Positions 18,492 through 40,840 of a DNA stretch of 64,000 bases are shown piece by piece (positions within the stretch are counted from its first letter, which is position 1; the number at the start of each line of letters is the position of its first letter). The translations under genes were made by a program, and so were the position numbers. The notes under the pieces were generated by a model that did no database searches, was not told the origin of the DNA, and was given only the letters and a program-made list of their open reading frames with translations. The stretch covers positions 9,512 to 73,511 of the forward strand of contig JAHJDO010000042.1 of NCBI GenBank assembly GCA_018812485.1. Direction: 5' to 3'. This DNA comes from a bacterium. GTDB taxonomy: Bacteria > JAHJDO01.

Positions 18492-20252
18492 ATGAAGCAA
18501 AAGACAAATTTAATAGAAAGACGGTATATCTGCTTTATGCTCGCTCTTGTAGTTGCTGCTGGAGTCAGCTTTGTTAGATATAGAGCTTTGAATCTAAATG
18601 CTGCCGGCGCCTCATTTACAGCTTTTTTTGTTGATTATGAAGAAAAAACTCGTCATGAACATTGGAGCGAAATGGTTGAAAAAGAACAAGATCCTTTTAT
18701 TGAAAAAATATTCAATAACCAAAAAGAGTACTCTGTTAATTGGGGATTATATAATTTTTTTAATCTTCCAACACATTTCTTCTATAAAACATTTCATCTT
18801 AGAGGCATTAATTTATGGCTTGCAAATAAGTTATTGGCCACATGTATGGGTATAGGCGTAGCTTTGCTTGTTTTTCTAATTGCTGATTTATTCTATGGTC
18901 CTTTGGTCGGATTGATTTCAAGTATATTGATGGCATTTTCTCCGCATATATGGGTTCTTTATAATTTTAGCGCTGACCCAGCTCAACCATATAACTTGTT
19001 CTTCAGTTTGCTGACCATCTATTTTTTTCTGCTGTTTATGGAACGAAATAGGTGGTATTTCATGCTTATCTCAGGCTTTGTTATGGGAATTAATTTCTTA
19101 TTTTTTCATGTTGGTTCTTTCTTAATTCCCATAATAATATTTGTTTTTTGTATATATAACGTTGTTACAAAAAGAAGGATTTGTTACATTGGGCACTTTT
19201 TTATAATCGCATTAATCGCTATCTTTTCTGGAGCTGCCTTAAATTATTTTCACTCCTCTTATTTGAATTTATCCTTTAATCCACTTATTACATATATTAA
19301 AAATTACATTTCCTGGGGACCAACGGCATCTCACACAATACATGGAATTATGTTGTTTGACTGGAGTAAGCTGGTTCTGAACACTAGGCACCATATTCAA
19401 GGTGTGTTTATTAATGGGAAAACCCAGGACTGGCATCATGGCGCTTCTCTCCCATCAATTCCGATGGTCTATAACTACCTAATCTCTCTTTTCTTTGCAA
19501 TTGCTTGCTTTATTCATATTCGCAGCAGGAAACGGAAAGATGTGTTTTTCTTCATTTGGTTTCTGACTTATTTCGCCATTTATAGTTTTATTATTTTTGT
19601 AAGGCAGAAGAACATTTTTGGAGAACTCCCCCCTGTTTTTATTCTGGCAGCAAGTTCAGTGCCTGTAGTGGGTGCGTTTTTGTATAGAAAAAGAGAAAGC
19701 AAGTGGATGCATTTTCTTCTGCGTCAGAAAATAAAAATAACATCAAAAAGTAAGTCAATTTATTTCTTAGCAATTTTATTAACCGTTTCTTCTATGGGAA
19801 TAGGATCTTTTATAATTTTTAGATATCTTCCAAGCAAGAATTTTTATAGTTCTTATAGAGCCCACTATAAGATTTATCAACATTTTTCTAAAAAAGGCTA
19901 TACTGACAAGACAAAAATAATCATTACAAGTGCTGTCGGTTTGCCCGATGCAAATATGATGATGCGTCTTTTTACAGAGAATATTCCTCAAATTATCAAT
20001 TTAACGGATTTTGGAATACATCAGAGTACAGACAATAAAGATAAGAATAAGTGGGTGCAAATGGAATCCACTCTCAAAGAAAATAGCGATAAAATGTTTT
20101 ACTGCTTCGCTTACCTCGATGACCATATGTGGGCTAAGTATTCTGACGAAGCCTGGAGAAATATCTTTATGAAGATTCATCCTGAATCTATTCCTTTTGA
20201 TATAAAAGGTCTTGATGGTAAAATAATTTGGCGAATTTATGAAATAGAATAA
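18492..20252 (+). CDS. Polytopic membrane protein, possibly a GT-C-fold glycosyltransferase of the ArnT/PMT type
   Basis: The 586-aa translation has about 11-13 transmembrane helices. An acidic DYEE motif sits in the first extracytoplasmic loop after TM1, reminiscent of the GT-C DE motif, and the soluble C-terminal domain is about 150 aa. Confidence 0.35.
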   Translation: MKQKTNLIERRYICFMLALVVAAGVSFVRYRALNLNAAGASFTAFFVDYEEKTRHEHWSEMVEKEQDPFIEKIFNNQKEYSVNWGLYNFFNLPTHFFYKTFHLRGINLWLANKLLATCMGIGVALLVFLIADLFYGPLVGLISSILMAFSPHIWVLYNFSADPAQPYNLFFSLLTIYFFLLFMERNRWYFMLISGFVMGINFLFFHVGSFLIPIIIFVFCIYNVVTKRRICYIGHFFIIALIAIFSGAALNYFHSSYLNLSFNPLITYIKNYISWGPTASHTIHGIMLFDWSKLVLNTRHHIQGVFINGKTQDWHHGASLPSIPMVYNYLISLFFAIACFIHIRSRKRKDVFFFIWFLTYFAIYSFIIFVRQKNIFGELPPVFILAASSVPVVGAFLYRKRESKWMHFLLRQKIKITSKSKSIYFLAILLTVSSMGIGSFIIFRYLPSKNFYSSYRAHYKIYQHFSKKGYTDKTKIIITSAVGLPDANMMMRLFTENIPQIINLTDFGIHQSTDNKDKNKWVQMESTLKENSDKMFYCFAYLDDHMWAKYSDEAWRNIFMKIHPESIPFDIKGLDGKIIWRIYEIE

Positions 20253-23200: not shown

Positions 23201-23740
23201 TATATTGCCAGGTGGGTAAAAGTGATCAAGCCGAGTGAAAATTTAGTAAATCTAAAAAAATACAGTTATTTTAATAAGTGGCCTCTTTCAGAAGATTTGA
23301 TATATAATTTTTCACATCATATGTCCAGCATACCGGATAATATGTGGAGGTCAGTTTTAATAGAGTCATCAGAATCTGAGGATTATTCAGATGTGCCATA
23401 TATTAACGCTACAGATAATAAGGTAAAGATAGTAAAAATTATTGGTTCAAAGGCGGTATTTGAGGTAGAATGCGGAAAAGATAATAGTTGGTTTGTTTAT
23501 AATACAGCTGCTTTAAAGGGGTGGAGAGCTTTTTTAGGCGCAAAAGAGATTCAGATACATAAAGCAAATCTAGGATTTATAGGAGTAAAGTTAAATAAAG
23601 GCAAGCATTTTTTGTGGATGGAGTACAAGCCGCTTTCAAGCAATATAGGTTTTGTCGTAACTTTTCTTGGTTGGATTCTTGTGTTTTTGTGTTTGATTTT
23701 TAAGTTGCCTTATGTGTTCATACAGACTAAAACGGAATAA
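20252..23740 (+). CDS. Very large polytopic membrane protein with YfhO-like architecture
   Basis: The 1162-aa translation has an N-terminal block of at least 14 transmembrane helices, a long coiled-coil/K-rich linker, a large extracytoplasmic domain and a final C-terminal helix (IGFVVTFLGWILVFLCLIF). This layout is typical of YfhO-family glycosyl-transfer membrane proteins. Confidence 0.35.
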   Translation: MIGLMQNRLTQCVCGINIIRSKWQAIYSRLAKRPLLSSFIIILVSSTIFGLWFKIKQLSVASSKLIYCYPLSWYGISIMQFLLIFCVLWLGLSLISLIIDQKREGIANNLLVCSLPFTAFWLSACNVKLLYPVCLFWIFSTVIIFLKIRRNKKFYDKIKEPLIVLIILASVFLVTFKSLSPLYHTSFFDAWGRIDFFLNFEHQWENAKAYDFIGNFTQQGKLGGYSQGIYMISELSSLIVLLFDIPLVDTLGKYASIKFMFFWLYVFGSYGCYLLLRYGLRLSFSPSFIGGLGFILGNAAFLSFNSTEYSIHQVPFLFLPWVLFLLNRAYSLNKSAIGILSGIGLAGLVASLSEYTLSSHPEINFLYFSFCNSYNIYLAFLLFKRNPFKLKSIPQFFINIAIFPIIHMVSLSYKLIPLFNSLIGREYALYDSNPYAGLPWDSSLVHWSTFFFRIRENVITTRLVSPIANPPIFFFTSQFVMLMIYSAVIIFCLHILSKLFKNRAGCSQNASIGNSFFFLATLLFLGINMAIGTHSWLSELMRFTGRLRVHDFIRMNIFYFFFALVGAMIGLDYMLKLKRLKIVNIVFIVYILNLIFVYFLPSSPKHPEKIYLDICILTGIYLLIYSSIRFKDINLQCLIKLMLISVALLSFFTIDARVTKLVIEKNNKQLKSKDNIYTSFRTAVTYLKNNQHDKASFKYLERKLNKFNQKVEATKKDKTELYLKKIISKETYKETMDYYKKIKNILDKNYTNQLQLFEAIAPEIDNFYMNYGPIQIVIGASPAAWAPLIVDTYNAVQFYLPDKYNLIVNTSGSTQSTLLPVGKNSELSAGLFYGLGPAFPSIDVSFHLKSLYPDLLANRHPGETAYHCWPIELKHLISKNFSDTLGRPKMKDVKKLTPMALKNMPDIKKLLNIYGVDYVMYLKYYLRMSEKEHIGPGALFDVDNLKKMGFIPLRLPESYRFTPRFNEHYEMGVLENTQSYGKAYIARWVKVIKPSENLVNLKKYSYFNKWPLSEDLIYNFSHHMSSIPDNMWRSVLIESSESEDYSDVPYINATDNKVKIVKIIGSKAVFEVECGKDNSWFVYNTAALKGWRAFLGAKEIQIHKANLGFIGVKLNKGKHFLWMEYKPLSSNIGFVVTFLGWILVFLCLIFKLPYVFIQTKTE

Positions 23741-23750
23741 TACGAGGAAA

Positions 23751-24902
23751 ATGAATTTCAGACTGGCTGCACTTCTGGATAAATTCGTGGGGAGGGTATT
23801 AGTTCAGTTAATCACTCTTTTACCCCCTTTTCCAAAACAAATTCCCCAAAATGCGAATTTTGAAAATATTCTAATAATAAAATTCTGGGGGTTTGGTTCC
23901 ATTTTGGAGGCAACACCTTTTTTCCACTCTTTAAAGCAGTCATATTCTGACGTAGCGCTGGATATCCTCACATTCTCAGATAATAAGCAGATAGTTGAGA
24001 GTCTTGGATTATTTCGAAATGTACATGTAATGGATTCACGAAAGGGAATTTTAAATTTTTTCAAACAAACAATTCGATTCATCCTGTCCTACAGACAAAA
24101 ATATTCACTGGTAATAGATATGGACTTCTTCGCGTATTTTTCAGCCTTAATAACTAAAATATCGGGTAGTATATACTCTTTGGGATTTAAGAGTTTTTTC
24201 CCCAGAAGAAACCGTTGCTATTCCTGCACGGTTGTCTTTGACCATTCCAGTCATATTCGGATGATCTTTCTTAAATTTTTGGATGCTCTTCACATAAAAA
24301 ACCCCGAAGATATTAGTTTGCTAGCGCCTAATGTTCCTGAAGAGAAGAAACTTTCGGTTATGGAAAAATTTCCGGAACTAAAGGATAATCGCCCAAAAAT
24401 TGCGGTAAATATTAATGCAGGTAATCTTTTCATGGGAAGACGATGGCCTGAGGAAAACTTTCGAAAGCTGATTGGTTTAATCCAGCAGGATTGTAATAAT
24501 CTGCAGATATATCTTGTCGGCGGAAAAGAGGACTTGCCTGTAGTAATATCTTTTTATGAATCGCTCCCGGACAAAAGAGGGGTTCATGTTACAGCCGGCA
24601 AGCTCGATATCATGGAATTTTCATACGTCCTATCTAAGATGGACTGTCTAATTACAAGCGATAGCGGACCGTTGCATATCGCTGAGGCAATAGGAATTCC
24701 TATAGTTGGTTTCTTTGGTCCGGAAACACCAAATCTTTACGGTCCGATGTCAGATAGAAGTTTAGTTTTCTATAAGAATCTATTTTGCAGTCCCTGCCTT
24801 AACACATACAACCACAAGATGAGTGATTGTACAAACAATCAGTGTCTTAAACTTATTTCGGCAGAAGATGTCTATGAGAAAATAAAAGACAGATATTTTT
24901 AG
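23751..24902 (+). CDS. Family 9 glycosyltransferase (heptosyltransferase-like)
   Basis: The N-terminus ILIIKFWGFGSILEATPFFHSLKQSY and the C-terminus ITSDSGPLHIAEAIGIPIVGFFGPETP are classic GT9 (WaaC/WaaF-type) motifs. I place the start at the ATG at 23751, which has a GAGGAAA ribosome-binding site, rather than at the track's overlapping 23712. Confidence 0.75.
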   Translation: MNFRLAALLDKFVGRVLVQLITLLPPFPKQIPQNANFENILIIKFWGFGSILEATPFFHSLKQSYSDVALDILTFSDNKQIVESLGLFRNVHVMDSRKGILNFFKQTIRFILSYRQKYSLVIDMDFFAYFSALITKISGSIYSLGFKSFFPRRNRCYSCTVVFDHSSHIRMIFLKFLDALHIKNPEDISLLAPNVPEEKKLSVMEKFPELKDNRPKIAVNINAGNLFMGRRWPEENFRKLIGLIQQDCNNLQIYLVGGKEDLPVVISFYESLPDKRGVHVTAGKLDIMEFSYVLSKMDCLITSDSGPLHIAEAIGIPIVGFFGPETPNLYGPMSDRSLVFYKNLFCSPCLNTYNHKMSDCTNNQCLKLISAEDVYEKIKDRYF

Positions 24903-24945: not shown

Positions 24946-26988
24946 ATGAAGACAAACCTAATGCTATCAGTAGTTGTACCAGTTTATAATGACCAGAAAT
25001 ACCTAGAAGGGTGTTTAAGGTCTATATTTGGCTCAGATTACCCTGATTTTGAGGTAATAGTGGTAAATGATGCTAGTACTGATGATTCTTTAGAGATAGC
25101 GAGAAAATTCCCCTGTCAAATTGTAGATCTAAAAACAAATGCTGGTGTAGCCAATGCTAGAAATAAAGGGGCTAATAATGCCAAAGGCGATATACTGGTC
25201 TTTTTTGATTCAGATGTGGAAGTTGAGCGGGATACCTTGTCAAGATTTGCCAAAGCCCACCAAAGGACAGATATTAAAGTATGCCAATGCCAAATATCTC
25301 CTTGCTCTTTGACTCCAGGATATATTCCAGAACTGATGGCAGTAATCTGGAATTATGTAGCTTGCTTAATGGCGCCATATAGTACAGCTGTTCGTTCAAT
25401 GTCCTTTTCAATTGATAAATCAGTATTTTTTGAGATTGGAGGATTTAATACCGTTTTTAAGTCAGCTGGCGGGGAAGAATATGAGATTGGAAGAGTCATC
25501 CAACAGCACGATTACAGGATATTTCTAGACTCCTCATTTCGTATACACCATAATTTTGAGAATTTTTTATCAAGATTTAAGAAGTTATTTAGAAGAAGTT
25601 ACGTCTATGGAAGGTTTGTCCTTCAAAGAAACTTCAAACTCGATAGAGGCCATGGGACTTTAAAAGAGGGCATTAATTCCCTGCTTTCGGTAATTGGAAT
25701 CTTAGAACTTCTTATTTCGTCGTTTATAGGTTGGACTTTCCTTTTGTTTTTAGCTACCATTATAATCCAACTTCTTTCTGACCTTGATCAGGGTATTTAC
25801 GTCACTAGAAAGAAAGGATTATTCTTTTTCATTCGTTCAATCCCCATAACTTATCTTTGGTATTTTGCAATGGGTCTAGGGGTTATTAAAGCAGGATTAA
25901 TGCATTATTTTACAAAGGTGTGTTCGACCTTAAGGAAGATAACTTTTTTGTTATCAAAAACTCCGGCATATGTCATATTCTTCGTAACTGCTAAATGTAA
26001 CGCTGGCTGTAAACATTGTTTTAATTGGAAGAAGGTACAAGAACAGGGTGTATCAGACGATCTTAGTTTAGAAGAGATTGAAAAGATGTCTAAATCTTGG
26101 GGTAACATAAAATACATGACCTATAGTGGTGGAGAACCCAGTTTAAGAGAAGACATTGTGGAGATAACTCAAAGCTTCTTTAAGAATAACCACTTAGAAA
26201 TGCTAAATTTTATTACCAATGGCTTTGCAGTTACCTCAGTTGTTAGCAAGATAAAAAAAATACTGAGAACTTGTCCTGGTTTAGACCTTACAGTGAGTTT
26301 TTCTATCGATGGTCTTGGGGATCAACATGATTCAATAAGAAACGCACCGGGAATCTTTGGGAGAGTGTTAGAGTCTATAGATAAAATAAGAAACCTAGAA
26401 AAGTATTACCCTAACCTGAAAATACTTGCTATAACCACTTATTCTAGCTTTAACAGAGATAATATATTTGATATTGTTGATTATATAACTAAAGGATTAA
26501 AATTAGAAATGATCCTGAATTATGTTCGCGGGGATACATTGGAAAAAAGCGCAGACCAAGTTGATTTGGATACCTATATGAAAGCGACCGAGACAATCGC
26601 AAAGCAAAACGCAATCAATTCCAGAAGATCCAGCATAGTTAGGGCACTGGATAATGTCTGCTTTAAGTTAATCGCCAAAACAAAAGAAGAAAAGAAGAGC
26701 TTAATACCTTGTTTGGTAGGAAAAAAGCTTATAGAAATAGGTAATGACGGTAGAATTTTCCCCTGTGAGATGTTGGATGTTGACTTTGGTAATGTATGCG
26801 ATTTCAATTACGATATAAATAAAGTTTTAAAAACAAAAAAAGCTTATGATTTTTTTAAGTTTCTAAATAAAAGGGATTGCTTTTGTACCTGGGAATGTGC
26901 AATGAAAAATAATATCGTTTACTCTATACCGAAATACCCTAGTCTGTTTTTAGAATGGTTTAGACAAGGTTTAAGCTTAAAGAATTAA
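24946..26988 (+). CDS. Tri-partite fusion: N-terminal GT2 glycosyltransferase, central transmembrane helices, C-terminal radical SAM/SPASM domain
   Basis: The N-terminus is LSVVVPVYNDQKYLEGCLRSI...VVNDASTDDS...FFDSDV (GT-A). Hydrophobic segments follow (LLSVIGILELLISSFIGWTFLLFLATIII). Then comes FVTAKCNAGCKHCFNW (Cx3Cx2C) with SGGEPSL and a C-terminal SPASM-like CLVGKK...FPCEM...CDF...CFCTWECAM. Confidence 0.7.
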   Translation: MKTNLMLSVVVPVYNDQKYLEGCLRSIFGSDYPDFEVIVVNDASTDDSLEIARKFPCQIVDLKTNAGVANARNKGANNAKGDILVFFDSDVEVERDTLSRFAKAHQRTDIKVCQCQISPCSLTPGYIPELMAVIWNYVACLMAPYSTAVRSMSFSIDKSVFFEIGGFNTVFKSAGGEEYEIGRVIQQHDYRIFLDSSFRIHHNFENFLSRFKKLFRRSYVYGRFVLQRNFKLDRGHGTLKEGINSLLSVIGILELLISSFIGWTFLLFLATIIIQLLSDLDQGIYVTRKKGLFFFIRSIPITYLWYFAMGLGVIKAGLMHYFTKVCSTLRKITFLLSKTPAYVIFFVTAKCNAGCKHCFNWKKVQEQGVSDDLSLEEIEKMSKSWGNIKYMTYSGGEPSLREDIVEITQSFFKNNHLEMLNFITNGFAVTSVVSKIKKILRTCPGLDLTVSFSIDGLGDQHDSIRNAPGIFGRVLESIDKIRNLEKYYPNLKILAITTYSSFNRDNIFDIVDYITKGLKLEMILNYVRGDTLEKSADQVDLDTYMKATETIAKQNAINSRRSSIVRALDNVCFKLIAKTKEEKKSLIPCLVGKKLIEIGNDGRIFPCEMLDVDFGNVCDFNYDINKVLKTKKAYDFFKFLNKRDCFCTWECAMKNNIVYSIPKYPSLFLEWFRQGLSLKN

Positions 26989-27151: not shown

Positions 27152-27212
27152 ATCTAAATTGAGGGTAAAGTGGTGGGGTTTACCTGATTTCGTAAAAAAT
27201 AAGGGATTAATC

Positions 27213-28256
27213 ATGTTAAGGTTTGGAGTTGTGGGATTTGGTAAAATGGGGATGCTGCATACCAGTATTTTGAATTCACTTAAGAACGTTGAACTTGCTG
27301 CGATTGTAGATAACTCTAAACTTATCCTGAGTTCTATCCAGACTTTAATGCCTCATGTTAAAACATATAAAGACCACAAAAACATGTTAATGAATGAAAA
27401 TCTGGATTTTGTCGTAATATCTACGCCGGTTCACACACATACAAAGATAGCAATAGATTGTATAGAGAATGGATGCCACGTATTTCTTGAAAAACCAGCG
27501 GCGCAGAATTTAGAAGATTTTTACACCTTAAGGGAAGCAAGTTTGAGAAATAGTGATTTGATGATAATTACAGGCTACTGTTACAGGTACAGAAGCACTT
27601 TTAAGAAGGTAAAGGAAATACTTGATAGCGGTCTGCTCGGTAAAATTATTCTTTTTAACGGTGTAATGTACTCTTCAGACATTCGTAAGCCTGAGAGAGG
27701 ATGGCGTTTCAAGAAAAGCGAATCAGGCGGGGGAGTCATCATAGATTCCACTTCTCATGTTATTGATATGTTAGCCTGGTATCTGGGAAAACCTCATGAA
27801 ATTATGGCAAGAACATCTAATTGGTATTCAAAAGAGGTAGAGGACTATGTGCACGCGGTATATAGCTTCAATGATGGGCTGACGGGATGGATTGAATCTT
27901 CATGGGCAGTGCCAAACTACCGCGTTCCCAGCATGAAAATACATCTGATAGGAACAAAAGGTGAGGTGATAGTAACAACAGACGAAGTTAGATTGTTTTT
28001 AAATGAAGGCGGTGGGGCATACAAAAAAGGATGGACAGTTCAGTACGCTGTAGACCTGAGGCCCCCCGTAAATTTTGAAATATTCGAAGAGTTTTACACT
28101 CTGCAGTTAGAAGAATTCATCGCATGTATAACTCACAAGTCAGATCATTTAAACAGTCTGCCTCATACGGGTGTTACACAGCAAATAATTGAAACAATCT
28201 ATAAGTCTTCAGCCGTGAATGGTCAGGGAATAACGATGGATTTGGAGGAATTATAA
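27213..28256 (+). CDS. Gfo/Idh/MocA-family NAD(P)-dependent oxidoreductase (a likely sugar or NDP-sugar dehydrogenase)
   Basis: MLRFGVVGFGKMGMLH is the Rossmann N-terminus typical of the family, and there is an EKP motif (VFLEKPAA). The ORF track begins at a TTG at 27159, but the ATG at 27213 has an AAGGGA ribosome-binding site and gives the canonical N-terminus. Confidence 0.75.
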   Translation: MLRFGVVGFGKMGMLHTSILNSLKNVELAAIVDNSKLILSSIQTLMPHVKTYKDHKNMLMNENLDFVVISTPVHTHTKIAIDCIENGCHVFLEKPAAQNLEDFYTLREASLRNSDLMIITGYCYRYRSTFKKVKEILDSGLLGKIILFNGVMYSSDIRKPERGWRFKKSESGGGVIIDSTSHVIDMLAWYLGKPHEIMARTSNWYSKEVEDYVHAVYSFNDGLTGWIESSWAVPNYRVPSMKIHLIGTKGEVIVTTDEVRLFLNEGGGAYKKGWTVQYAVDLRPPVNFEIFEEFYTLQLEEFIACITHKSDHLNSLPHTGVTQQIIETIYKSSAVNGQGITMDLEEL

Positions 28257-28258
28257 GT

Positions 28259-29155
28259 ATGTCTGCAAGGATTGACAATATAATTTTAGGAGATAACCAA
28301 TTTTCAGGCGTTAATCATTTATCTCAAGCTCTCGGACAACTCAAGGCAATCAAGTTTCAGGATGATAACGAAATTAAAAAAATAATCGAATATGCGATCT
28401 CTCAAGGGGCGCAAGGCATGATGTTATCAACCCATGCAGAAGTGGAAAGGATTCTTAATATTATTAGAAACGACGATCTTCTTCAGAATAATCTTAATAT
28501 TTACCCCAATATTCCTGATATTGCTAAATATGTAAGACGAGCAACAACGCAGGGTGGAATAACAGGGCTAATGAAATCTATCCTGAGTCAGCTCAGCTTC
28601 GGTATGAAAGCCAGTCTTATAATTGAGGGCGGAAAAGGTCTGATGAAAAAAGATATTCTCAAGATGTTAGAAGTATTAATAGATTTAGAGATGGCTTTTT
28701 TTAGAGGTTTGAAAATAAAAGCCATATTTCTACATACCATAGTTGTTGATTTAGCGCTTGGCCTTGGCCTTGACCAAATACTTTCACACTACTATTCTTA
28801 TATAAAGGATAAATATAATGTTATTCCCGGTTTTGGGACTCTAAATCTGCCAAAACTTCTTAATAAACTCCAGATGTTAGGGATTGATTACCCGTTGATA
28901 ATGACATCGGTTAACAAAAAAGGATTTTATATGAATCCAAGCAAGGCAGCATGTGAAGAAGTTATAAACGATGGTAAGTGCGAGATTTTAGCAATAGGAA
29001 CGCTTGCATCCGGAGCCATTTCTCTGCGTGAAGCGTATGAATATCTTTTTTCATTTCATAACATAAAATCATTAGTCATCGGCGCATCAACTAAAGATCA
29101 TATTAAACAGTCTTTCGATTTGGTGAAGTCTTACCATGCTCATAGGCAACAATAG
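28259..29155 (+). CDS. Hypothetical protein
   Basis: The 298-aa ORF is co-directional and tightly packed with its neighbours. I recognise no motif in it. Confidence 0.3.
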   Translation: MSARIDNIILGDNQFSGVNHLSQALGQLKAIKFQDDNEIKKIIEYAISQGAQGMMLSTHAEVERILNIIRNDDLLQNNLNIYPNIPDIAKYVRRATTQGGITGLMKSILSQLSFGMKASLIIEGGKGLMKKDILKMLEVLIDLEMAFFRGLKIKAIFLHTIVVDLALGLGLDQILSHYYSYIKDKYNVIPGFGTLNLPKLLNKLQMLGIDYPLIMTSVNKKGFYMNPSKAACEEVINDGKCEILAIGTLASGAISLREAYEYLFSFHNIKSLVIGASTKDHIKQSFDLVKSYHAHRQQ

Positions 29156-31475
29156 GCATAGGATTAGTTCTGCTTTGAAAATAATATCTAAATTTTACAA
29201 TGAAGAGCTTGAAAGCATCTTTGCTAGAATCTTATACTTCTTTAACACGATTGATACATATTTTATTCTTGTAGGAATCAGCTCTTTTGTCATCGTTTTT
29301 CCGGGAAAAGTCAATGTTATAGTGCTGGTGCTATCTCTGTTGTTTGCGTTGATTACGGCAAAAATCGCTGATTTTTATCCCAGTTTTGTGATACTTGCTA
29401 TTCCTGTACTTATTATACTTGGAATTGTATTAGATCTTTCAGGGTCATTAATAATGGCTCTTTTTATTGTAAATACAGCCCTGTTTTTTATAATACAGTT
29501 TGTTTTTATGGGCATACCTGATTCAATAGTTGCCCGTGATATACGAGTTGCTTTTATAAAAATATACAATTCATTATTTACGGTTGCTCCAACAACAGTT
29601 TCTTTTTCTATGAGTGTCTTCTTTTCATTCTATGTATCCTTTTGTATAGCTGCAGCCGTTTCATGCCGAGCAATAAAGGATTATACCTTGCTTGGGGCAG
29701 CGGGAGTAATTCTCTTTTTTTGTGCTTTGCTTGCCCGTTCAATGCGACCCAAAAACCTTTTCAGCAAGTTCCATAAGCCGGATGTCAGGGCTAACCCGAT
29801 ATTTAAACGGGTAGTGATTCTGAATATAGATGGTGTAAGAAAAGATGTTTTTGACTCATTAAATTTACCTGCAATAGCCAGATTAACCAAGGAGGGTACA
29901 AGCCATGCATTTGGACTGGAGACTGTATATCGGGCGTTAACCAATCCTGCATTTGCAAGTATATTTACGGGTACTATTCCCAGTGTTCACGGCGTCCGCA
30001 GCAACAACTTCGGACAATCAATTGTAACAGAGGGTTTGCCTGATATTGTCCCGTCTATTGCATACGGTTCAATGCATGTTAAACATTTTTGCAAGAAGTA
30101 CTGGCAGACACGTATAGTCTCATTGCCCCGCCATTCCGTATATCTTTCCGACGATATAATGGTAGACTGGCTTAAAGATGATATGCTTAATAGACCAGAG
30201 ATACGTCTTTTTGTCGCAGATTTCAGCGAAGCGGATTTTCTTGCTCACGCCTACGGCAGTAAGTCTAGGCAATACAAGGAAGCTCTTCAGAGGATTGATA
30301 AGCGTATAGGAGATTTTATAGATTGGATGAAATCAAATAACATGTCAGATGATACAGCGGTTATTGTATGTTCTGATCATGGAATAGCGGCAATTGACCA
30401 CAGCTATCTTATAGCTGATTCAGAAAGATATGTGCCCTTTTTGATTTATGGGAAGGGTATCAAAAAAGGATTCCATATACAGCGGCCGGGAACAATTATG
30501 GATATTTGCTGTACAGTCGCATACTTTCTTGGAATCCGATATCCCTATAATTCAAGAGGACAGGTCTTTACTGAAGCGCTTGAGGATTCTGATCTTGAGT
30601 CAGAGAAAGAAACATTTGTCAGTAGATTCAACCAGTTGAAGTATGATGCTGAAGCTGAGCAGTACCATTGTGACCATGTTGAGATTTATGCCGGAGACGC
30701 ACAGTGGTGGGATCAGTGTATTTCGAAGTTTATAATGGACAAAAAATGCGATCTGAGAGTGCTTGATATCGGATGCGGCAATGGCTTTGTGGGTGAAAGA
30801 TTTGTCGCAATGGGGGTCAATTTTAGTGATTTTGTATGTATGGATATTTCTAAAAACATACTTGAGGAAGCTAAGAAAACGCTTGGGAAATATCCCGGAT
30901 TTTCCTTTACAACCAGTTTAGATGATGTTAATGGAACATTTGACATAATTACTGCCAGCTCGGTTTTTCATCATGTTGTTCATCCGGATAAGCTTGCAGA
31001 TATCATTGACAGGTTTCTCGCAGAAGATGGAATTGTGATTGGAAGCCATGAGCCAAATAAGGAAGCATTTAAAAAGAAGTTGTTTTATGCAGGAGCAGCT
31101 TTATATAAAGGAATAGGCGGAAGTATAAGTATTAGCAATGAAGTCGTGCGTGAGTTCAATGATCTGCTCCGTAACAGATATCCAAATGCTCCCGGCGTCT
31201 GCCGTGAAGAGATACTTCAGATGGTAGAGTATCACTCTCCTTTGGAGCAGTATGATAAGTCTATTGATTTACAAAGCGGGTTCATACCGGATGAGTTCTG
31301 CAAACTATGCTTTCCAGGATATAAAGTACTCCTGCTTGAGACCTACTCAACATTTTCTCATAGGCTATGGCTGTCAAAACATAAAAGAATACAATCTTTG
31401 CTTGTTGCTATGTTTAATCTTTTATTTAAACGGGGCAATCTCTTCAGATTCGTCTTGAGGAAAAAGGAGATATGA
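29136..31475 (+). CDS. Fusion of membrane-anchored alkaline-phosphatase-superfamily (type I phosphodiesterase/NPP-like) domain with a C-terminal class I SAM methyltransferase domain
   Basis: About six N-terminal transmembrane helices come first. VVILNIDGVRKDVFDS and VIVCSDHGIAAIDHS then match the metal-ligand motifs of the Phosphodiest/AP superfamily. The C-terminus VLDIGCGNGFVGERF...IITASSVFHHV is a methyltransferase motif I plus post-II. Confidence 0.55.
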   Translation: MLIGNNRHRISSALKIISKFYNEELESIFARILYFFNTIDTYFILVGISSFVIVFPGKVNVIVLVLSLLFALITAKIADFYPSFVILAIPVLIILGIVLDLSGSLIMALFIVNTALFFIIQFVFMGIPDSIVARDIRVAFIKIYNSLFTVAPTTVSFSMSVFFSFYVSFCIAAAVSCRAIKDYTLLGAAGVILFFCALLARSMRPKNLFSKFHKPDVRANPIFKRVVILNIDGVRKDVFDSLNLPAIARLTKEGTSHAFGLETVYRALTNPAFASIFTGTIPSVHGVRSNNFGQSIVTEGLPDIVPSIAYGSMHVKHFCKKYWQTRIVSLPRHSVYLSDDIMVDWLKDDMLNRPEIRLFVADFSEADFLAHAYGSKSRQYKEALQRIDKRIGDFIDWMKSNNMSDDTAVIVCSDHGIAAIDHSYLIADSERYVPFLIYGKGIKKGFHIQRPGTIMDICCTVAYFLGIRYPYNSRGQVFTEALEDSDLESEKETFVSRFNQLKYDAEAEQYHCDHVEIYAGDAQWWDQCISKFIMDKKCDLRVLDIGCGNGFVGERFVAMGVNFSDFVCMDISKNILEEAKKTLGKYPGFSFTTSLDDVNGTFDIITASSVFHHVVHPDKLADIIDRFLAEDGIVIGSHEPNKEAFKKKLFYAGAALYKGIGGSISISNEVVREFNDLLRNRYPNAPGVCREEILQMVEYHSPLEQYDKSIDLQSGFIPDEFCKLCFPGYKVLLLETYSTFSHRLWLSKHKRIQSLLVAMFNLLFKRGNLFRFVLRKKEI

Positions 31476-32989
31476 AGATAATTTTTCCTGTTATGGGTGC
31501 TGAGAATATATCAGTCAGCTATCTTTCGACAGTTCTTAAAGAGGCTGGGCATATAGTTAAGGTGGCTTTTGATCGTTCACTATTTGATGATAAGCAATAT
31601 TTTTCCGTTCCTTTTCTCAGCCGTATGTTCACTGAAAAAAAGAGAATGATAAAAGAAATAATCAGGGAGAAGCCTGATATTCTTGCTATGTCTGTATTCG
31701 CCGATAATTACCAATGGGGTCTTGAAGTGGTACGTGAAGTACGTAAATGCCACATGTGCATTACTGTATGGGGTGGAATGCATCCTACTTCCTGCTCGGA
31801 GGAAGTTATCAGTAGAGACGAGGTGGATTACATGATTGTAGGGGAGGGGGAAACCCCTTTCATGGAATTGCTTGAAGCGCTTGAAAAGAAGGAATCGCCA
31901 GAAAGTATTTCCAATTTGTGGATGAAGAAAAACGGCAAGGTAATTCGTAACAAGCCTAGATTATTAATGGACCCCAAAGCTTTTCCAGCTGTAGACAAAA
32001 CCATATATGAAAAGTTTATCCCAATGAAGGACTATTACCTTACTGTTACATCTAAGGGGTGTATTGCCCACTGCAGTTATTGTACGCAGAATTTTCTCTG
32101 GAAATGGGAAAAAGAAGAAGGATTAGGACATTTTCTCAGAGAAAAATCTGTTGATGCTGTATTAGACGAATTAAAGGCAATGAAAAAACGTTATAGTATC
32201 CGTTATGTTGATATAAAAAATAATGTACTTTCAGGTAACAGCAAATGGTTTGATGAGTTTCTTGCGCGTTATCCTGAAGAGATTCAGTTGCCTTTCAGAA
32301 TAATGGGACATCCTCTGTTGTTTCAAAAAGACCTGGCAGTCAAATTAAAAAAGGCAGGCTGTCATCATATTCAAATAGGAATTGAATCATTAAATCCCGA
32401 AGTAAGAAAAAAAGTGCTGTTTCGCAACGAGACTAACGAGCAGATTATCAGAGCGCTTGATAATATTGAAAAAGCAGGTATTAATTTTTCCGCAGATCTG
32501 ATGTTGGGTCTTCCGGGAGAGTCGGAGGACGACCTGATTTTAGCTCTTAAAACTCTTGCAAAATATCGCAGACTCATACGTTCGTCCGTATTCTGGCTTC
32601 AGTATTTGCCAAGCGTTGATATTACCAGAATGGCCATATTGAAAGGCTATATAAACAAAGGAAACGAAATAAAAATTGTTCAGGGGCTTCAGAATAACTA
32701 CTTATCAACAGGCTCATCAATGGAGCCGCAGAGAATGAGAATACTCAAGACATACCATATCATGTTCCGTTTACTTCCTATTGTTTCTCAGAGAATCATG
32801 AATTTTCTGATAAACTCTGGGATATATCGCATATTCAGGTATATCCCATTCCAGATATTTGCTATCATCGTCATTGATGTGTTTGTTTCTTTTGTGCGCA
32901 AGGACTACTATGCAAAATGGATTATGGGATGGTATTTCAAACAGCTGTTTAAGCATCTTACCGGAAAGGTAGAGACAATTTCAGATTAA
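31472..32989 (+). CDS. B12-binding-domain radical SAM protein (class B-like)
   Basis: The N-terminal cobalamin-binding-like domain (MKIIFPVMGAENISVSYLSTVLKEAGH...DILAMSV) precedes TSKGCIAHCSYCTQ (Cx3Cx2C). This is the first of three tandem paralogs. Confidence 0.75.
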   Translation: MKIIFPVMGAENISVSYLSTVLKEAGHIVKVAFDRSLFDDKQYFSVPFLSRMFTEKKRMIKEIIREKPDILAMSVFADNYQWGLEVVREVRKCHMCITVWGGMHPTSCSEEVISRDEVDYMIVGEGETPFMELLEALEKKESPESISNLWMKKNGKVIRNKPRLLMDPKAFPAVDKTIYEKFIPMKDYYLTVTSKGCIAHCSYCTQNFLWKWEKEEGLGHFLREKSVDAVLDELKAMKKRYSIRYVDIKNNVLSGNSKWFDEFLARYPEEIQLPFRIMGHPLLFQKDLAVKLKKAGCHHIQIGIESLNPEVRKKVLFRNETNEQIIRALDNIEKAGINFSADLMLGLPGESEDDLILALKTLAKYRRLIRSSVFWLQYLPSVDITRMAILKGYINKGNEIKIVQGLQNNYLSTGSSMEPQRMRILKTYHIMFRLLPIVSQRIMNFLINSGIYRIFRYIPFQIFAIIVIDVFVSFVRKDYYAKWIMGWYFKQLFKHLTGKVETISD

Positions 32990-35932: not shown

Positions 35933-36988
35933 ATGAGTTCGAAGCTTACGACACTTATTAGAGGGCGTAAGGCAATGTTTAGCCTGTTGAAGTGTAAATT
36001 TAGCAAGAAGCGTATTCCGGTCAGAGCAAGCTTTTTGGTAACGAAATATTGCAATCTGAGATGCTTTTATTGTTACACTAAGGATATTCTAAATGATAAA
36101 AACGTACACGAGCCAACCATTGATGAGTTAAAAAACACTATTGATCAAATTTATGAGGCTGGATGCCGCTGGATAAACATTTTAGGTGGCGAGCCTCTTA
36201 TGAGAGATGATATCGAAGAATTCATTAATTATGTCAGTAATAAAGGAATGTTTATGGAGATAACCACAAATGGTTTTTTCGTAAAGAAGAGGATAAAAGC
36301 ATTAAAGAAAGTAGATCATCTTTGTATAAGTTTGGATGGAAATAAAGAGTCTAATGATAAAAGTCGCGGTAAAGGATCTTTTGAGAAAATCGTTGAAGGG
36401 ATTGAATACGCTGTAACAAACGGTCTAAGCGTAAGAGTACATGCGACACTATGCAAAAGGACAATGCAGGGTAAATCATTGGAGTTTTTGTCAGATTTTT
36501 GCAACAGACTGAAAATAAAACTGAACTATTCAGAGAACGGTCTGCCAGGAATAGAGAAGATGGATCCTGATTTTCTTCTTTCCAGAGAGGAAACCATGAA
36601 TTTCTACAGAAGTTATAAAAGTTTAAGGAATAAAGGATTTCCTATAATTAGTTCAGACGTGGCGGTAGAATATGCATCAAAATGGCCTCTTCAAGGACAG
36701 ACAATCATTTATAAGAAAGACCTTCACAAAATTCCAAAAGGCAGTTTTTATCCCTGTGAGCTTGGGAGAAGCCAATGTTTTATTACCAGTGACGGTTATG
36801 TATACCCTTGTTCAAAAAAATGGGGTTATGGGAAAAATCTATATGAGGTAGGATTTAAAGAAGCTTGGAATTATTTGGAAAATCTAGACTGCGTAGCTTG
36901 TAAAGAGCTTGGGACTATAGAGCAAAGTCTTATTACAGGTCTTAATCCCAGCGCTTTGTTCAACGCCATAACAAATTTTGCGCTATAA
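35933..36988 (+). CDS. Radical SAM/SPASM-domain protein
   Basis: The cluster motif is VTKYCNLRCFYCY with GGEPLM. The C-terminal region is CFITSDGYVYPCSKKWGYG...CVACKELG. It is a paralog of the 16623 gene. Confidence 0.7.
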   Translation: MSSKLTTLIRGRKAMFSLLKCKFSKKRIPVRASFLVTKYCNLRCFYCYTKDILNDKNVHEPTIDELKNTIDQIYEAGCRWINILGGEPLMRDDIEEFINYVSNKGMFMEITTNGFFVKKRIKALKKVDHLCISLDGNKESNDKSRGKGSFEKIVEGIEYAVTNGLSVRVHATLCKRTMQGKSLEFLSDFCNRLKIKLNYSENGLPGIEKMDPDFLLSREETMNFYRSYKSLRNKGFPIISSDVAVEYASKWPLQGQTIIYKKDLHKIPKGSFYPCELGRSQCFITSDGYVYPCSKKWGYGKNLYEVGFKEAWNYLENLDCVACKELGTIEQSLITGLNPSALFNAITNFAL

Positions 36989-37007
36989 ATTTAAAGGAAT
37001 TAAAGTC

Positions 37008-37625
37008 ATGAACTGTAAATATTGTATAGATGATATAAAGTACACAGTGGAAGTTGTTGATATAGAGACAAAGTGCAAATATCATAAGAAAATAGGAGAG
37101 GTATATTCGTCATCAGCGGTTGCTCCTGCTGGTTTATGCCGCGAACTTTTTTACACAGCTTATCCAAGATGCCTGGCTGTGCTTTACAGCGGAAAGCCTA
37201 CGCGCGGATGGTTAAGGGGAAAAGGAGTGCGGAGTATGACTGTTCGGTGTCCTGCAGCAAACGGCATAAAAGTATTGATTAGAGTAGAAGATATTTTTAT
37301 CCCGCCGATACGCATGGTTAAGGAGCTTGTTGAAGAATTATGTAAAGTTATATATAGGCCATTGGATGGTCCTTTTAGAAAAGTTGCTATTGAGATTATT
37401 GAAACAGGTTCCGATTGTCCAAAAGGATATCACATGGGAGATACCTTTTACTTTAATGTAGATAAGCAAGATGAATTGTGTCCTGCTGGGTTTGCAACTA
37501 TATATCCATATTTAAGGCGTATGAGAAATACCAAGAAAAATAATGGTTTGCTACACTCAATTAAAGTGCACTGTCCTGATTGTGTCGGCGTAACATATAA
37601 TGTAACTATTAAAGAAGATAAATGA
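37008..37625 (+). CDS. Cys-rich protein with two internal repeats, resembling the uncharacterised TIGR04076 family
   Basis: Two copies of the module C-P-x3-5-G-x2-F ... P-x-G-(F/L)-C-x3-(I/F)-Y-(P/T)-Y are present: CRELFYTAYPRC...VRCPAANGIKV and DCPKGYHMGDTFYF...ELCPAGFATIYPYL...HCPDCVG. I place the start at the ATG at 37008, which has an AAAGGA ribosome-binding site. Confidence 0.4.
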   Translation: MNCKYCIDDIKYTVEVVDIETKCKYHKKIGEVYSSSAVAPAGLCRELFYTAYPRCLAVLYSGKPTRGWLRGKGVRSMTVRCPAANGIKVLIRVEDIFIPPIRMVKELVEELCKVIYRPLDGPFRKVAIEIIETGSDCPKGYHMGDTFYFNVDKQDELCPAGFATIYPYLRRMRNTKKNNGLLHSIKVHCPDCVGVTYNVTIKEDK

Positions 37626-37647
37626 TGTTGTTGTAATCGGAGGTTTT

Positions 37648-38948: not shown

Positions 38949-38953
38949 ATATT

Positions 38954-40832: not shown

Positions 40833-40840
40833 TTGGCTGG

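Follow-up and report, generated by a model that had tools for sequence, protein, structure and literature searches.

A predicted membrane-anchored NPP-type enzyme fused to a methyltransferase in a radical-SAM-rich glycan locus

Gene and domain structure

The analyzed bacterial DNA stretch of 64,000 nucleotides (hereafter, the window) represents a glycan locus that includes Wzx and an HddA/HddC-like pair. All features given below with their coordinates are on the forward strand. Positions 29136..31475 carry a complete, uninterrupted ORF of 779 aa starting with ATG, which, given its length at ∼36% GC, is not a chance ORF; a sequence search yielded more than 80 full-length homologs of this 779-aa protein at E=0. 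In the public annotation, the identical protein (P0001) has 766 aa and starts from TTG at 29175, 13 codons downstream. As residues 1–10 have pLDDT below 50 in the AlphaFold2 model (pLDDT 90.4 and pTM 0.88 for the protein as a whole), the gene starts at either 29136 or 29175. Through the sequence ATGA, the end of the gene overlaps with the start codon of the next one downstream, which encodes a B12-binding radical SAM (rSAM) enzyme.

The gene encodes a three-module enzyme comprised of a six-helix membrane domain (TM), an NPP-type two-metal phosphoryl-transfer domain of the alkaline phosphatase superfamily (AP), and a class I SAM-dependent methyltransferase (MT), with the activities predicted from the sequence. 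Literature searches retrieved no biochemical data on any member of the TM-AP family. Its proteins are presently annotated as "alkaline phosphatase family protein."

Membrane module and orientation

The membrane module (aa 1–222, 29136..29801) contains six hydrophobic helices found alike by hydropathy and in the AlphaFold2 model (residues 39–54, 61–78, 82–98, 103–133, 157–175, and 180–202), in agreement with the anchor of about six helices proposed in the initial annotation. The module has 19 invariant positions. The invariant residues Y21, E26, R31, Y34, F35, N37, T38, D79, F80, P82, M125, P128, I131, R134, T149, A151, T153, and S156 all belong to the face predicted to be cytoplasmic. This conserved face, together with the AP domain, very probably forms a lipid-binding site. 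No Pfam family matches aa 1–222, and a profile of the module yields zero PDB sequence matches at E≤10. Among 1.84 billion proteins, the module has been seen solely joined to this AP domain (52 representatives).

In all 26 homologs, there are 10–15 lysines and arginines on the N-terminus, the loops 2–3 and 4–5, and the segment following the sixth helix, and 0–3 on the other loops. According to the positive-inside rule, this bias predicts an N-in/C-in module with the post-TM6 segment in the cytoplasm. Hydropathy shows no hydrophobic segment beyond aa 204; the AP and MT domains are not separated by a helix, and a methyltransferase needs SAM, which is cytoplasmic. Taken together, the positive-inside rule and this logic strongly suggest that both catalytic domains face the cytoplasm. 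The initial annotation had left the sidedness of the two domains to be checked; they are predicted to lie on the same side, not on opposite ones.

Phosphodiesterase domain

The membrane module is followed by an NPP-type catalytic domain (aa 223–485, 29802..30590), identified by Pfam and by PDB sequence and fold matches. The Pfam model PF01663 (Phosphodiest) scores 104.1 bits against the cut-off of 23 (1.6e-29), while the sulfatase-type model PF00884 reaches merely 38.6 bits with a partial match at aa 375–465. The motifs NIDGVRKD (aa 230–237, nt 29823–29846) and CSDHGIA (aa 412–418, nt 30369–30389) had led the initial annotation to a type I phosphodiesterase/NPP-like metal-dependent domain; the PF01663 match, the fold, and the invariant residues all agree with this assignment. 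In particular, N230, I231, D232, G233, R235, D237, S413, D414, H415, and G416 do not vary among 26 homologs.

The same homologs invariably have D232, T269, N290/N291, D367, H371, D414, H415, and H422, and this set, except H422, aligns with the catalytic motifs of the Xanthomonas NPP (Xac NPP, 2gsn). D232 (29829..29831), within NIDG, is a metal ligand. The predicted catalytic nucleophile is T269 (29940..29942) of the ALTNPA motif, which corresponds in the alignment to the nucleophilic Thr of Xac NPP. D367-F-L-A-H371 (30234..30248) is an Asp-x3-His metal-site motif aligned with D..GH of Xac NPP. The metal ligands D414 and H415 of SDHG and the residue H422 of IDHS are at 30375..30401, H422 being a candidate further ligand.

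Xac NPP and ENPPs are the top Foldseek matches of the AlphaFold2 model (prob 1.00), and Xac NPP is its best PDB fold match (TMt 0.59, E=1.7e-11, identity ∼17%). PbgA and LtaP are also among the fold matches. The top 60 PDB sequence matches do not include EptA, MCR-1, or LtaS. Most NPPs are hydrolases. In Xac NPP, the nucleophile is followed by Phe, a residue of the nucleotide-binding slot; the TM-AP family has an invariant Asn270 at this position (LTFPNH vs. ALTNPAF). Therefore, the leaving-group or nucleotide pocket should differ from that of Xac NPP. The homolog sequences have no conserved cysteine pairs in the AP domain, C412, C458, and C459 being variable.

Methyltransferase domain

The C-terminal module (aa 486–779, 30591..31472) is a class I SAM-dependent methyltransferase according to Pfam, profile, and fold matches, and the Pfam models bear out the initial annotation in this respect as well. 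The models Methyltransf_12, 11, 25, 23, and 31 match at aa 537–646 (1.7e-12 to 8e-10), and, together with the conserved motif I VLDIGCGNG (aa 542–550, 30759..30785), D570, and D603, they support a SAM-binding Rossmann core. The residues L543, G546, G548, D603, H612, H613, and E639, as well as S701, P702, E704, Y737, and R743, are invariant in the fused and stand-alone MTs (see below). The 140-residue C-terminal half is family-specific, with invariant HEPN, HSPxEQ, Y737, and R743; in the profile search, this presumably substrate-binding half matched nothing.

The top profile matches of the domain include PmtA (8ys9, E=2.6e-14) and plant PEAMTs (5wp4/5wp5, ∼3–5e-14). However, the matches to 8ys9, 5wp4, 5wp5, 3uj6, and 4krh span only the SAM-binding core of ∼105 residues (profile positions ∼41–153 or ∼47–154), and the PmtA and PEAMT scores are equal to or below those of LahSB, YcgJ, UbiG, BamL, and other unrelated MTs. 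PmtA superposes on the core (TMt 0.73), the fold matches of the domain being generic. PEAMT and PmtA are absent from the single-sequence search with the MT domain at E≤1, which yields WbdD among weak matches (E=0.02–0.03). No specific affinity of the MT to PEAMT, PmtA, or WbdD was seen. Pfam and NCBIfam scans found no kinase domain in the fusion protein. As the MT bears no specific likeness to methyltransferases with known substrates, it is the fusion and synteny that suggest methylation of the AP product.

Fused and unfused forms

The fusion is conserved among Omnitrophota, Patescibacteria, Nitrospinota, Desulfobacter, and Planctomycetota at identities of 40–78%. The fused MT domain is missing from about two thirds of the complete representatives of the family. 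These unfused relatives are ∼470 aa long and often have a stand-alone MT ortholog of ∼292 aa nearby. In one unfused cluster, the ortholog is 37% identical over 282 aa (E=1e-61); others were found in the loci L025, L026, L027, and L035, making at least five loci of different lineages in all. The gene studied here combines in one ORF what elsewhere is a gene pair, TM-AP and the ∼292-aa MT. Since the MT ortholog is often retained nearby, the two activities appear to be functionally linked, as the initial annotation had assumed, and its persistence in the cluster when unfused, together with fusions persisting to 40% identity across phyla, points to consecutive or coupled steps. The fused and unfused pairs also provide a natural experiment for detection of the methyl group.

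Genomic context

The genes of the window bear out the glycan context suggested earlier. The downstream gene (31472..32989), translationally coupled to the fusion gene, encodes the B12-binding rSAM enzyme, B12a, with a C-terminal membrane helix (aa 457–475). Upstream are genes encoding a GT9 (heptosyltransferase-family) glycosyltransferase (23712..24902), a fusion of GT2, a membrane helix, and rSAM (24946..26988), and a PMT_2 (ArnT/PMT-like GT-C) membrane glycosyltransferase (18492..20252). The rSAM half of the GT2 fusion matches an rSAM of ∼360 aa which in most related loci sits between the GT9 and AP genes. In addition, the locus contains five other class I MTs.

Among 37 related loci, GT9 is present in ∼26, the ∼357-aa rSAM family in 29, and B12a matches in 28 (median identity 44%). 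Mostly, they share the strand of the AP gene and lie no more than 1–2 kb from it, and the order GT9, rSAM, AP is tightly conserved. In several loci, e.g., L006 and L028, the AP gene is directly followed by one encoding a ∼596-aa PMT_2 protein. Hence, GT9, the ∼360-aa rSAM, TM-AP with or without MT, the membrane-anchored B12-rSAM, and often the PMT_2 GT-C form a conserved module, which sits within rSAM-rich surface-glycan loci. No donor-synthesis gene (cytidylyltransferase or kinase) conserved with the family was found in the related loci. The window ORFs of at least 150 aa include neither a Bac_transf nor a Glycos_transf_4 protein, the canonical initiating phosphoglycosyl transferases.

Comparison with known systems

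The closest sequence and fold match of the AP domain is to NPP/ENPP proteins (PF01663), represented by the Xanthomonas axonopodis NPP (2gsn/7n1s), which has the same motifs (Asp, Thr nucleophile, Asn, Asp-x3-His, and Asp-His), all of them invariant in the TM-AP family. However, NPPs, either secreted or ecto-enzymes, have no more than one anchor helix, whereas in the fusion protein a dedicated six-helix module and a fused MT are present and the location is predicted to be cytoplasmic.

EptA/MCR-1, EptB/C, CptA, OpgE, BcsG, LtaS, and OpgB likewise combine an N-terminal multi-helix domain with a downstream AP-superfamily domain that contains a Thr nucleophile and a metal site. EptA, with its polytopic membrane domain and Thr/Ser nucleophile, is a phospholipid-head-group transferase; EptA-type transferases have membrane-associated glycoconjugates as their targets, with the membrane domain assisting in lipid substrate binding (PMC10525099). 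Unlike the fusion protein, whose AP domain is of the PF01663 type (104 vs. 38.6 bits), EptA/LtaS-type enzymes have a sulfatase-type catalytic domain (PF00884), which is periplasmic or outside rather than, as predicted here, cytoplasmic. Their five membrane helices (EptA_B_N/LtaS type) are unrelated in sequence to the six-helix module, and all of them lack an MT domain.

The GPI transferases PigN/Mcd4, PigO/Gpi13, and PigG/Gpi7 combine a PF01663-type domain with many membrane helices and demonstrate that NPP-type domains can act as lipid-donor phospho-alcohol transferases on lipid-linked glycans. In contrast to the fusion protein, these eukaryotic enzymes have a lumenal catalytic domain, a large membrane bundle that is C-terminal rather than N-terminal, and no MT. 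To our knowledge, all characterized membrane-embedded AP-superfamily transferases, which include the lipid A, LPS core, and cellulose PEtN transferases (MCR-1 among them), lipoteichoic acid synthase, and GPI EtNP transferases, use phospholipid donors and work at the outer side of the membrane, where they decorate glycoconjugates. The predicted cytoplasmic orientation thus appears to set our enzyme apart from every characterized membrane-anchored phospho-alcohol transferase, which the initial annotation had not anticipated.

The E. coli O9a O-antigen chain terminator WbdD is a cytoplasmic, membrane-associated, bifunctional enzyme adding phosphate and then methyl to a lipid-linked glycan prior to export. 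It shares with our proposal (see below) the logic of a phospho-group followed by a methyl group, but has a kinase domain and neither an AP-type domain nor a membrane bundle, and the likeness of its MT is generic. PEAMT/PMT and PmtA are class I Rossmann MTs from the same broad Methyltransf_11/12/25 group as the fused MT, the likeness again being limited to the SAM-binding core, with the 140-residue C-terminal half specific to the fused family.

Proposed function

As the best explanation, we tentatively propose that a lipid-linked sugar intermediate at the inner leaflet is subjected by the enzyme to phosphodiester chemistry and methylation. With moderate confidence, we take the substrate to be such a lipid-linked intermediate, probably polyprenyl-phosphate-linked, the modified residue most likely being the one installed by the neighboring GT9, possibly a heptose. 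Thr269 might attack a phosphodiester donor, either the head group of an inner-leaflet phospholipid or a nucleotide-activated alcohol, forming a covalent phospho-Thr; a sugar hydroxyl could then resolve this intermediate, so that a phosphodiester-linked substituent would be installed. The MT domain might subsequently methylate the substituent or an adjacent position, and Wzx and the GT-C enzymes would later flip the modified unit and use it on the outside of the membrane. The methylation step would be optional, as about two thirds of the complete representatives have no fused MT, although some of these have a stand-alone ortholog nearby.

The transferase chemistry is suggested by the architecture since, as far as we know, all characterized enzymes with an N-terminal polytopic membrane domain and an active AP domain are phospholipid-head-group transferases with a Thr/Ser nucleophile (e.g., LtaS, OpgB, BcsG, and PigN). 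Against this chemistry, the catalytic domain is of the NPP type (PF01663) and not of the sulfatase type (PF00884) seen in EptA and LtaS, and no donor-synthesis gene is conserved with the family.

The full form of our proposal is more speculative. The enzyme could be the first inward-facing counterpart of EptA, LtaS, and PigN, equipped with a six-helix lipid-binding module of its own and placing a phosphodiester substituent on a polyprenyl-linked sugar at the cytoplasmic leaflet before flipping, with the fused form methylating it, within a GT9/rSAM/B12-rSAM pathway for a heavily methylated surface glycoconjugate common to Omnitrophota, CPR bacteria, and DPANN archaea. If so, cytoplasmic AP-type phosphoryl transfer coupled to an MT would be a new route of glycan phospho-decoration prior to export. 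It would also open a way into a widespread, uncharacterized rSAM-rich glycan pathway of Omnitrophota, Patescibacteria, and DPANN archaea, whose chemically uncharacterized cell surfaces mediate episymbiotic or predatory lifestyles.

A rather unlikely but serious competitor is hydrolytic trimming, with the AP domain, as a phosphodiesterase, pyrophosphatase, or phosphatase bound to the membrane, removing a phosphate, nucleotide, or phospho-group from a lipid- or nucleotide-linked intermediate, and the MT O-methylating the unmasked hydroxyl or another position. Example substrates would be the product of the neighboring rSAM enzyme or a phosphorylated sugar. The nearest relatives both in sequence and in structure, Xac NPP, ENPP1–7, and PafA, are hydrolases; the bimetal site is complete; and hydrolysis needs no donor-synthesis gene, consistent with none being conserved. 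Moreover, rSAM sugar pathways often have a dedicated phosphatase step, such as PolJ after PolH, a comparable step being that of Rv3807c in decaprenyl-phospho-arabinose synthesis. On the other hand, a dedicated conserved polytopic module is typical of lipid-binding transferases and unusual for simple hydrolases, but this argument discriminates weakly, as a hydrolase of lipid-linked substrates would need such a module too. For a mere hydrolase, the result would be a modest gain in the annotation of the "alkaline phosphatase family protein" entries.

The initial annotation had been more specific, and this sub-case of the proposed transferase chemistry seems improbable: PEtN would be transferred from phosphatidylethanolamine to the glycan and N-methylated to N-methyl-PEtN or phosphocholine, or else a phosphate would be installed and O-methylated, as by WbdD. 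It would account for PmtA and plant PEAMTs being among the top profile matches, with a superposable PmtA core, and for the weak WbdD match, and EtNP transfer by PF01663 domains is known from PigN-type enzymes. However, the former matches are confined to the SAM-binding core and score no better than unrelated MTs, the C-terminal half of the MT matches nothing, and nothing points to ethanolamine, whereas the WbdD match has just E=0.02 and the protein lacks the kinase domain of WbdD. Overall, none of the tested features favors the chemistries put forward in the initial annotation, and no donor-synthesis gene accompanies the family.

It is similarly doubtful that the AP and MT domains act on separate substrates or positions, the fusion merely tethering a glycan or lipid MT to the membrane near the pathway. 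The five other class I MTs in the locus would fit, and the many representatives without a fused MT indicate that the AP function is independent of it, but the unfused ortholog keeps to the same cluster in at least five loci of different lineages, and fusions persist down to 40% identity across phyla.

Still less credible is a priming role, with TM-AP moving a sugar-1-phosphate or another phospho-group onto a polyprenyl (phosphate) carrier to form the primer for GT9. This would explain the lack of a canonical phosphoglycosyl transferase among the window ORFs of at least 150 aa, the tightly kept order of GT9, rSAM, and AP, and the conservation on the membrane module's cytoplasmic face. However, we know of no AP-superfamily enzyme in such a role, the priming enzyme may lie beyond the window, and the GT2 with a membrane helix (starting at 24946) could load polyprenyl phosphate instead.

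Finally, a conventional outward-facing EptA/LtaS-like transferase with a periplasmic AP domain and a non-functional or misassigned MT, as the domain order and the fold matches to PbgA and LtaP might suggest, is highly implausible, as the membrane module has no Pfam or PDB match and is unrelated to that of EptA, conserved cysteine pairs are absent from the AP domain, no helix separates AP from MT, the SAM motifs are intact and invariant, and the lysine/arginine bias is strongly opposite.

Domain architecture and the catalytic site

The ORF at 29136-31475 (+ strand) is uninterrupted and encodes a protein of 779 aa. The identical public protein (P0001, "alkaline phosphatase family protein [bacterium]") is 766 aa long and starts with TTG at 29175. 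As residues 1-10 have low confidence in the AlphaFold2 model, both 29136 and 29175 are possible starts. Pfam matched the Phosphodiest family (PF01663, 1.6e-29, 104 bits) and, at aa 537-646, overlapping class I methyltransferase (MT) models; the NCBIfam matches (PafA, phosphopentomutase, sulfatases, UbiG, BioC) were all sub-threshold. The ORF, the AP-superfamily phosphodiesterase domain and the methyltransferase domain of the initial annotation are thus borne out. Both motifs it had quoted are present, NIDGVRKD at aa 230-237 and CSDHGIA at aa 412-418, with key residues that do not vary in an alignment of 26 homologs.

Using this alignment and the AlphaFold2 model (pLDDT 90.4, pTM 0.88), we divided the protein into three modules. 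The membrane module (aa 1-222) comprises two N-terminal helices and six hydrophobic helices (H39-54, 61-78, 82-98, 103-133, 157-175, and 180-202). It is followed by an NPP-type AP-superfamily domain (aa 223-485), assigned by PDB profile search, HMM alignment, and Foldseek, and by a class I methyltransferase (aa 486-779) with intact motif I (VLDIGCGNG), D570, and D603.

Sequence and fold place the AP domain in the AP superfamily, within its NPP branch (PF01663). In the PDB profile search, Xanthomonas NPP ranked first (2.2e-18), and in the HMM alignment with this enzyme D232, T269, N290/291, D367-x3-H371, and D414-H415 paired with the metal-ligand, nucleophile, and Asn motifs. All these residues and H422 are invariant in the 26 homologs. 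The best Foldseek match of the model was the same enzyme (E=1.7e-11, TMt 0.59), with ENPPs, PbgA, LtaP, and sulfatases next. One position differs: directly behind the nucleophile, the family has an invariant Asn and Xanthomonas NPP a Phe. Judged from these residues, the protein carries a catalytically complete NPP-type phosphoryl-transfer site with Thr as the predicted nucleophile. It is joined to a membrane module that is conserved and lipid-facing and, at the genetic level, to a SAM methyltransferase.

The membrane module and its orientation

In an alignment of 14 sequences, 19 positions of the membrane module are invariant (Y21, E26, R31, Y34, F35, N37, T38, D79, F80, P82, M125, P128, I131, R134, T149, A151, T153, S156, and P215). 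As estimated from this alignment, conservation is far above that expected of a passive anchor. No Pfam family matched aa 1-222, and no solved structure was matched by sequence when the module profile was compared with PDB. The profile of the membrane module only, searched against 1.84 billion representative proteins, yielded 52 proteins, all of them fragments or of the ~470-aa or ~770-aa architecture; the complete representatives were about 7 fused proteins and about 15 unfused ones. The family is therefore rare, and its membrane module is specific to this AP domain.

Each of the 26 homologs has 10-15 lysines and arginines in the N-terminal segment, loops 2-3 and 4-5, and the stretch following the sixth helix taken together, against 0-3 in the remaining three loops. 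With six helices, both ends of the membrane module lie on one side of the membrane, and since there are no further hydrophobic segments after residue 204, the AP and MT domains share that side. SAM is a cytoplasmic metabolite. Given the charge bias, the lack of a later helix, and a functional-looking SAM site, we strongly infer that both domains face the cytoplasm. Opposite placement of the catalytic domains would have been incompatible with the initial proposal that one protein installs and then methylates a phospho-substituent on a glycan; the charge bias and hydropathy predict the same side. The invariant residues of the module all lie on its predicted cytoplasmic side, beside the AP domain, a position that would be expected of a substrate-binding interface.

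In architecture, the protein is similar to the EptA/LtaS class, but it fails three tested defining features, namely a catalytic domain of PF00884, homology of the TM domain, and, by prediction, an extracytoplasmic orientation; therefore, it should not be filed in this class. What is new is the dedicated membrane module, the predicted inverted orientation, and the methyltransferase fusion in an AP-superfamily membrane enzyme. Our literature search found no publication describing the TM-AP(-MT) family or its module.

Fusion and fission of the methyltransferase

Full-length fused homologs (TM-AP-MT, 40-78% identity) were found in Omnitrophota, Candidatus Uhrbacteria, Nitrospina/Nitromaritima, Desulfobacter vibrioformis (P0080 in the cultivated strain DSM 8776), Planctomycetota, and others. 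The second group of homologs, ~460-500 aa long, has only the TM and AP modules and includes members from Acidobacteriota, Gemmataceae, Magnetococcales, Patescibacteria, and DPANN archaea. In one locus with an unfused protein (L002, protein P0091), a stand-alone MT of 292 aa is encoded three genes downstream of the AP gene and aligns with the fused MT domain along its whole length (37% identity, E=1e-61); another MT of the window has no more than 25% identity to this domain over the core. Further stand-alone MT orthologues occur near the unfused AP gene in four other loci (L025, L026, L027, and L035). This fused-versus-split pattern is good evidence that AP and MT act in a single pathway step or in successive ones. 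The core AP function can do without the MT. Several longer "fusions" (991, 851, 785, and 692 aa; L027, L031, L042) proved to be over-extended ORFs produced by the simple ORF caller in high-GC DNA and are not new architectures.

The family-specific invariant set of the MT domain comprises H612, H613, E639, S701, P702, E704, Y737, and R743; at least 90% of sequences also have H638 and H700. A separate model of this domain (pLDDT 92.5) had generic fold matches only. The PEAMT/PmtA-like methylation of phosphoethanolamine, as initially suggested, gained no support: PmtA and PEAMT structures rank among the top profile matches of the MT, but they align over the ~105-residue SAM core only, their scores are equalled by many unrelated MTs, and they were absent from the single-sequence MT search.

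Unfused TM-AP homologs with 35-41% identity were also found in archaeal MAGs of Woesearchaeota and Nanobdellati (L033, L037, L045), where they adjoin an MT-GT2 fusion and epimerases. In three Acidobacteriota loci (L036, L038, L040), the unfused gene directly adjoins GT9, without the radical SAM gene. TM-AP is thus spread across domains, and TM-AP together with a glycosyltransferase/epimerase context seems to be the minimal conserved pair.

Conserved neighbours

Co-occurrence was estimated in 37 related loci of at least 9 kb, using a simple ORF caller and BLAST thresholds. Single-linkage clustering of ORFs merged the AP and B12 families via over-extended ORFs and was used only for the counts of GT9 glycosyltransferases (about 26/37 loci) and of the ~357-aa radical SAM protein (29/37); the other figures come from per-gene BLAST. 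The B12-binding radical SAM gene directly downstream of the fusion gene (31472-32989, + strand; B12a) has matches in 28 of the 37 loci, with median identity of 44%, clearly above the paralogue level of 24-30%. The typical order, on the same strand, is GT9, radical SAM, AP(±MT), B12a. In the window, the equivalent of the ~357-aa protein is the C-terminal half of a GT2-radical SAM fusion (24946-26988). In several loci, a ~596-aa PMT_2 GT-C gene directly follows the AP gene.

B12a has a C-terminal hydrophobic helix (aa 457-475), kept in 10 of 15 orthologues across phyla, and in the GT2-radical SAM fusion the two domains are separated by a helix (aa 256-274). These neighbouring enzymes are therefore predicted to be membrane-bound themselves, with cytoplasmic catalytic domains. 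Membrane-anchored radical SAM enzymes of this type are uncommon and imply lipid-linked substrates. The donors of GT-C enzymes are polyprenyl-phosphate-linked. Together, the membrane-bound neighbours and the GT-C donor type suggest that the chemistry takes place at the inner leaflet, on a lipid-linked sugar.

B12a and the corresponding protein of another metagenomic bacterium (L002:5312-6826) share 94% identity (477/505), while the AP proteins of the same two loci, one of them unfused, are only 49% identical, and other neighbours 29-59%. This suggests mosaicism, with single genes recently exchanged between clusters. A megablast check for mobile-element origin yielded no plasmid match for 29136-32989.

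The proposed reaction

We tentatively propose that the protein is a transferase. Thr269 would attack a phosphodiester donor, either an inner-leaflet phospholipid head group or a nucleotide-activated alcohol; from there the phospho-substituent would pass to a hydroxyl group of the lipid-linked sugar that GT9 makes, with the MT finally methylating either this substituent or a position next to it. This reading is based on the precedent of polytopic AP enzymes and on the lack of a conserved donor-synthesis gene. To our knowledge, every characterised active AP-superfamily enzyme with an N-terminal polytopic membrane domain is such a transferase. LtaS, OpgB, BcsG, and PigN are of this type. EptA, whose membrane domain is likewise N-terminal and polytopic, is a transferase too (PMC10525099). 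No donor-synthesis gene was conserved with the AP family in the 37 related loci, which fits a phospholipid donor. WbdD, which acts by cytoplasmic phosphorylation and then methylation of a lipid-linked glycan, is a functional analogue, not a relative.

The main rival is hydrolytic trimming of a lipid-linked or nucleotide-linked intermediate. The closest relatives of the AP domain are hydrolases, which favours this reading, and the protein may prove to be an ordinary phosphodiesterase of the pathway; we consider trimming somewhat less likely than transfer. Under the transferase reading, the specific chemistries initially suggested (N-methyl-phosphoethanolamine, phosphocholine, or methylphosphate) are possible sub-cases, and nothing tested singles them out. 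A role of the AP domain as a missing GmhB-like heptose-bisphosphate phosphatase is unlikely, as a soluble substrate needs no conserved six-helix module. A hopanoid-type pathway was rejected, as the HpnJ, HpnH, and HpnA models match the neighbours only far below the cut-offs. So was phosphonate or P-methylation chemistry: the PhpK and Sden_1168-like scores of the B12 enzymes are sub-threshold, and neither PEP mutase nor any further C-P gene occurs in the window. For specialists, the predicted inverted topology and the occurrence in CPR, DPANN, and Omnitrophota, within a glycan pathway rich in radical SAM enzymes, should be of interest.

The glycan locus

The region 3709-62746 of the window is one co-directional locus of ~59 kb. 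It encodes a Wzx-like flippase, GT2, GT4, and GT9 glycosyltransferases, sugar dehydratases and epimerases, a DegT aminotransferase, a PMT_2 GT-C, a 1162-aa YfhO-like protein with ~15 TM helices, and six class I MTs. The locus is unusually rich in radical SAM genes, with 12 in total, six of them of the B12-binding type (at 7963, 31472, 32994, 34423, 44478, and 51691) and six others (at 12790, 16623, 24946, 35933, 38954, and 42465). Among window ORFs of at least 150 aa, no canonical initiating phosphoglycosyl transferase was detected, whether of the Bac_transf/PglC-WbaP or Glycos_transf_4/WecA type, despite the Wzx-type organisation.

The segment 53193-58468 carries a split transketolase, an HddA-like GHMP kinase, a DegT aminotransferase, a NUDIX hydrolase, and an HddC-like nucleotidyltransferase. 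The kinase and the nucleotidyltransferase score best with HddA (165 bits, below the cut-off of 600) and HddC (181 bits, below the cut-off of 300) of the GDP-heptose pathway; no GmhA or GmhB was seen. The segment could encode a route to an NDP-heptose or a related higher sugar feeding the GT9 enzyme.

A PNP gene (at 40017), which passes the NCBIfam cut-off, and an APRT-like gene (at 40841) span 40017-41521 inside the locus. The HpnH/HpnG and futalosine analogies raised the possibility that they are biosynthetic partners, which was rejected, as both are absent from all 37 related loci. Probably, they provide local salvage of 5'-deoxyadenosine/adenine made by the many radical SAM enzymes.

The sub-module at 35933-40015 encodes a radical SAM protein (351 aa), two TIGR04076-family proteins (215 and 164 aa), an SDR (274 aa), and a PqqE-like radical SAM-SPASM protein (353 aa). 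It recurs in five related loci (L005, L007, L019, L021, and L026), and outside the window it is accompanied by a ~508-aa protein whose only domain is AICARFT_IMPCHas (PurH-like). The YfhO-like match of the 1162-aa protein (20252-23740) is limited to its C-terminal part, and its L002 counterpart of 1062 aa matches AftD GT-C faintly. Another protein (46866-48611, 581 aa, ~11 TM) matches no family. Both window proteins are candidate novel GT-C glycosyltransferases, polymerases, or ligases. Finally, 27159-29155 encodes a Gfo/Idh/MocA oxidoreductase, with a best, sub-threshold match to the sugar 3-dehydrogenase type, and then an unannotated 298-aa protein, whose stop overlaps the ATG start of the fusion gene by 20 nt. 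The same pair adjoins the AP gene in one of the Acidobacteriota loci (L036).
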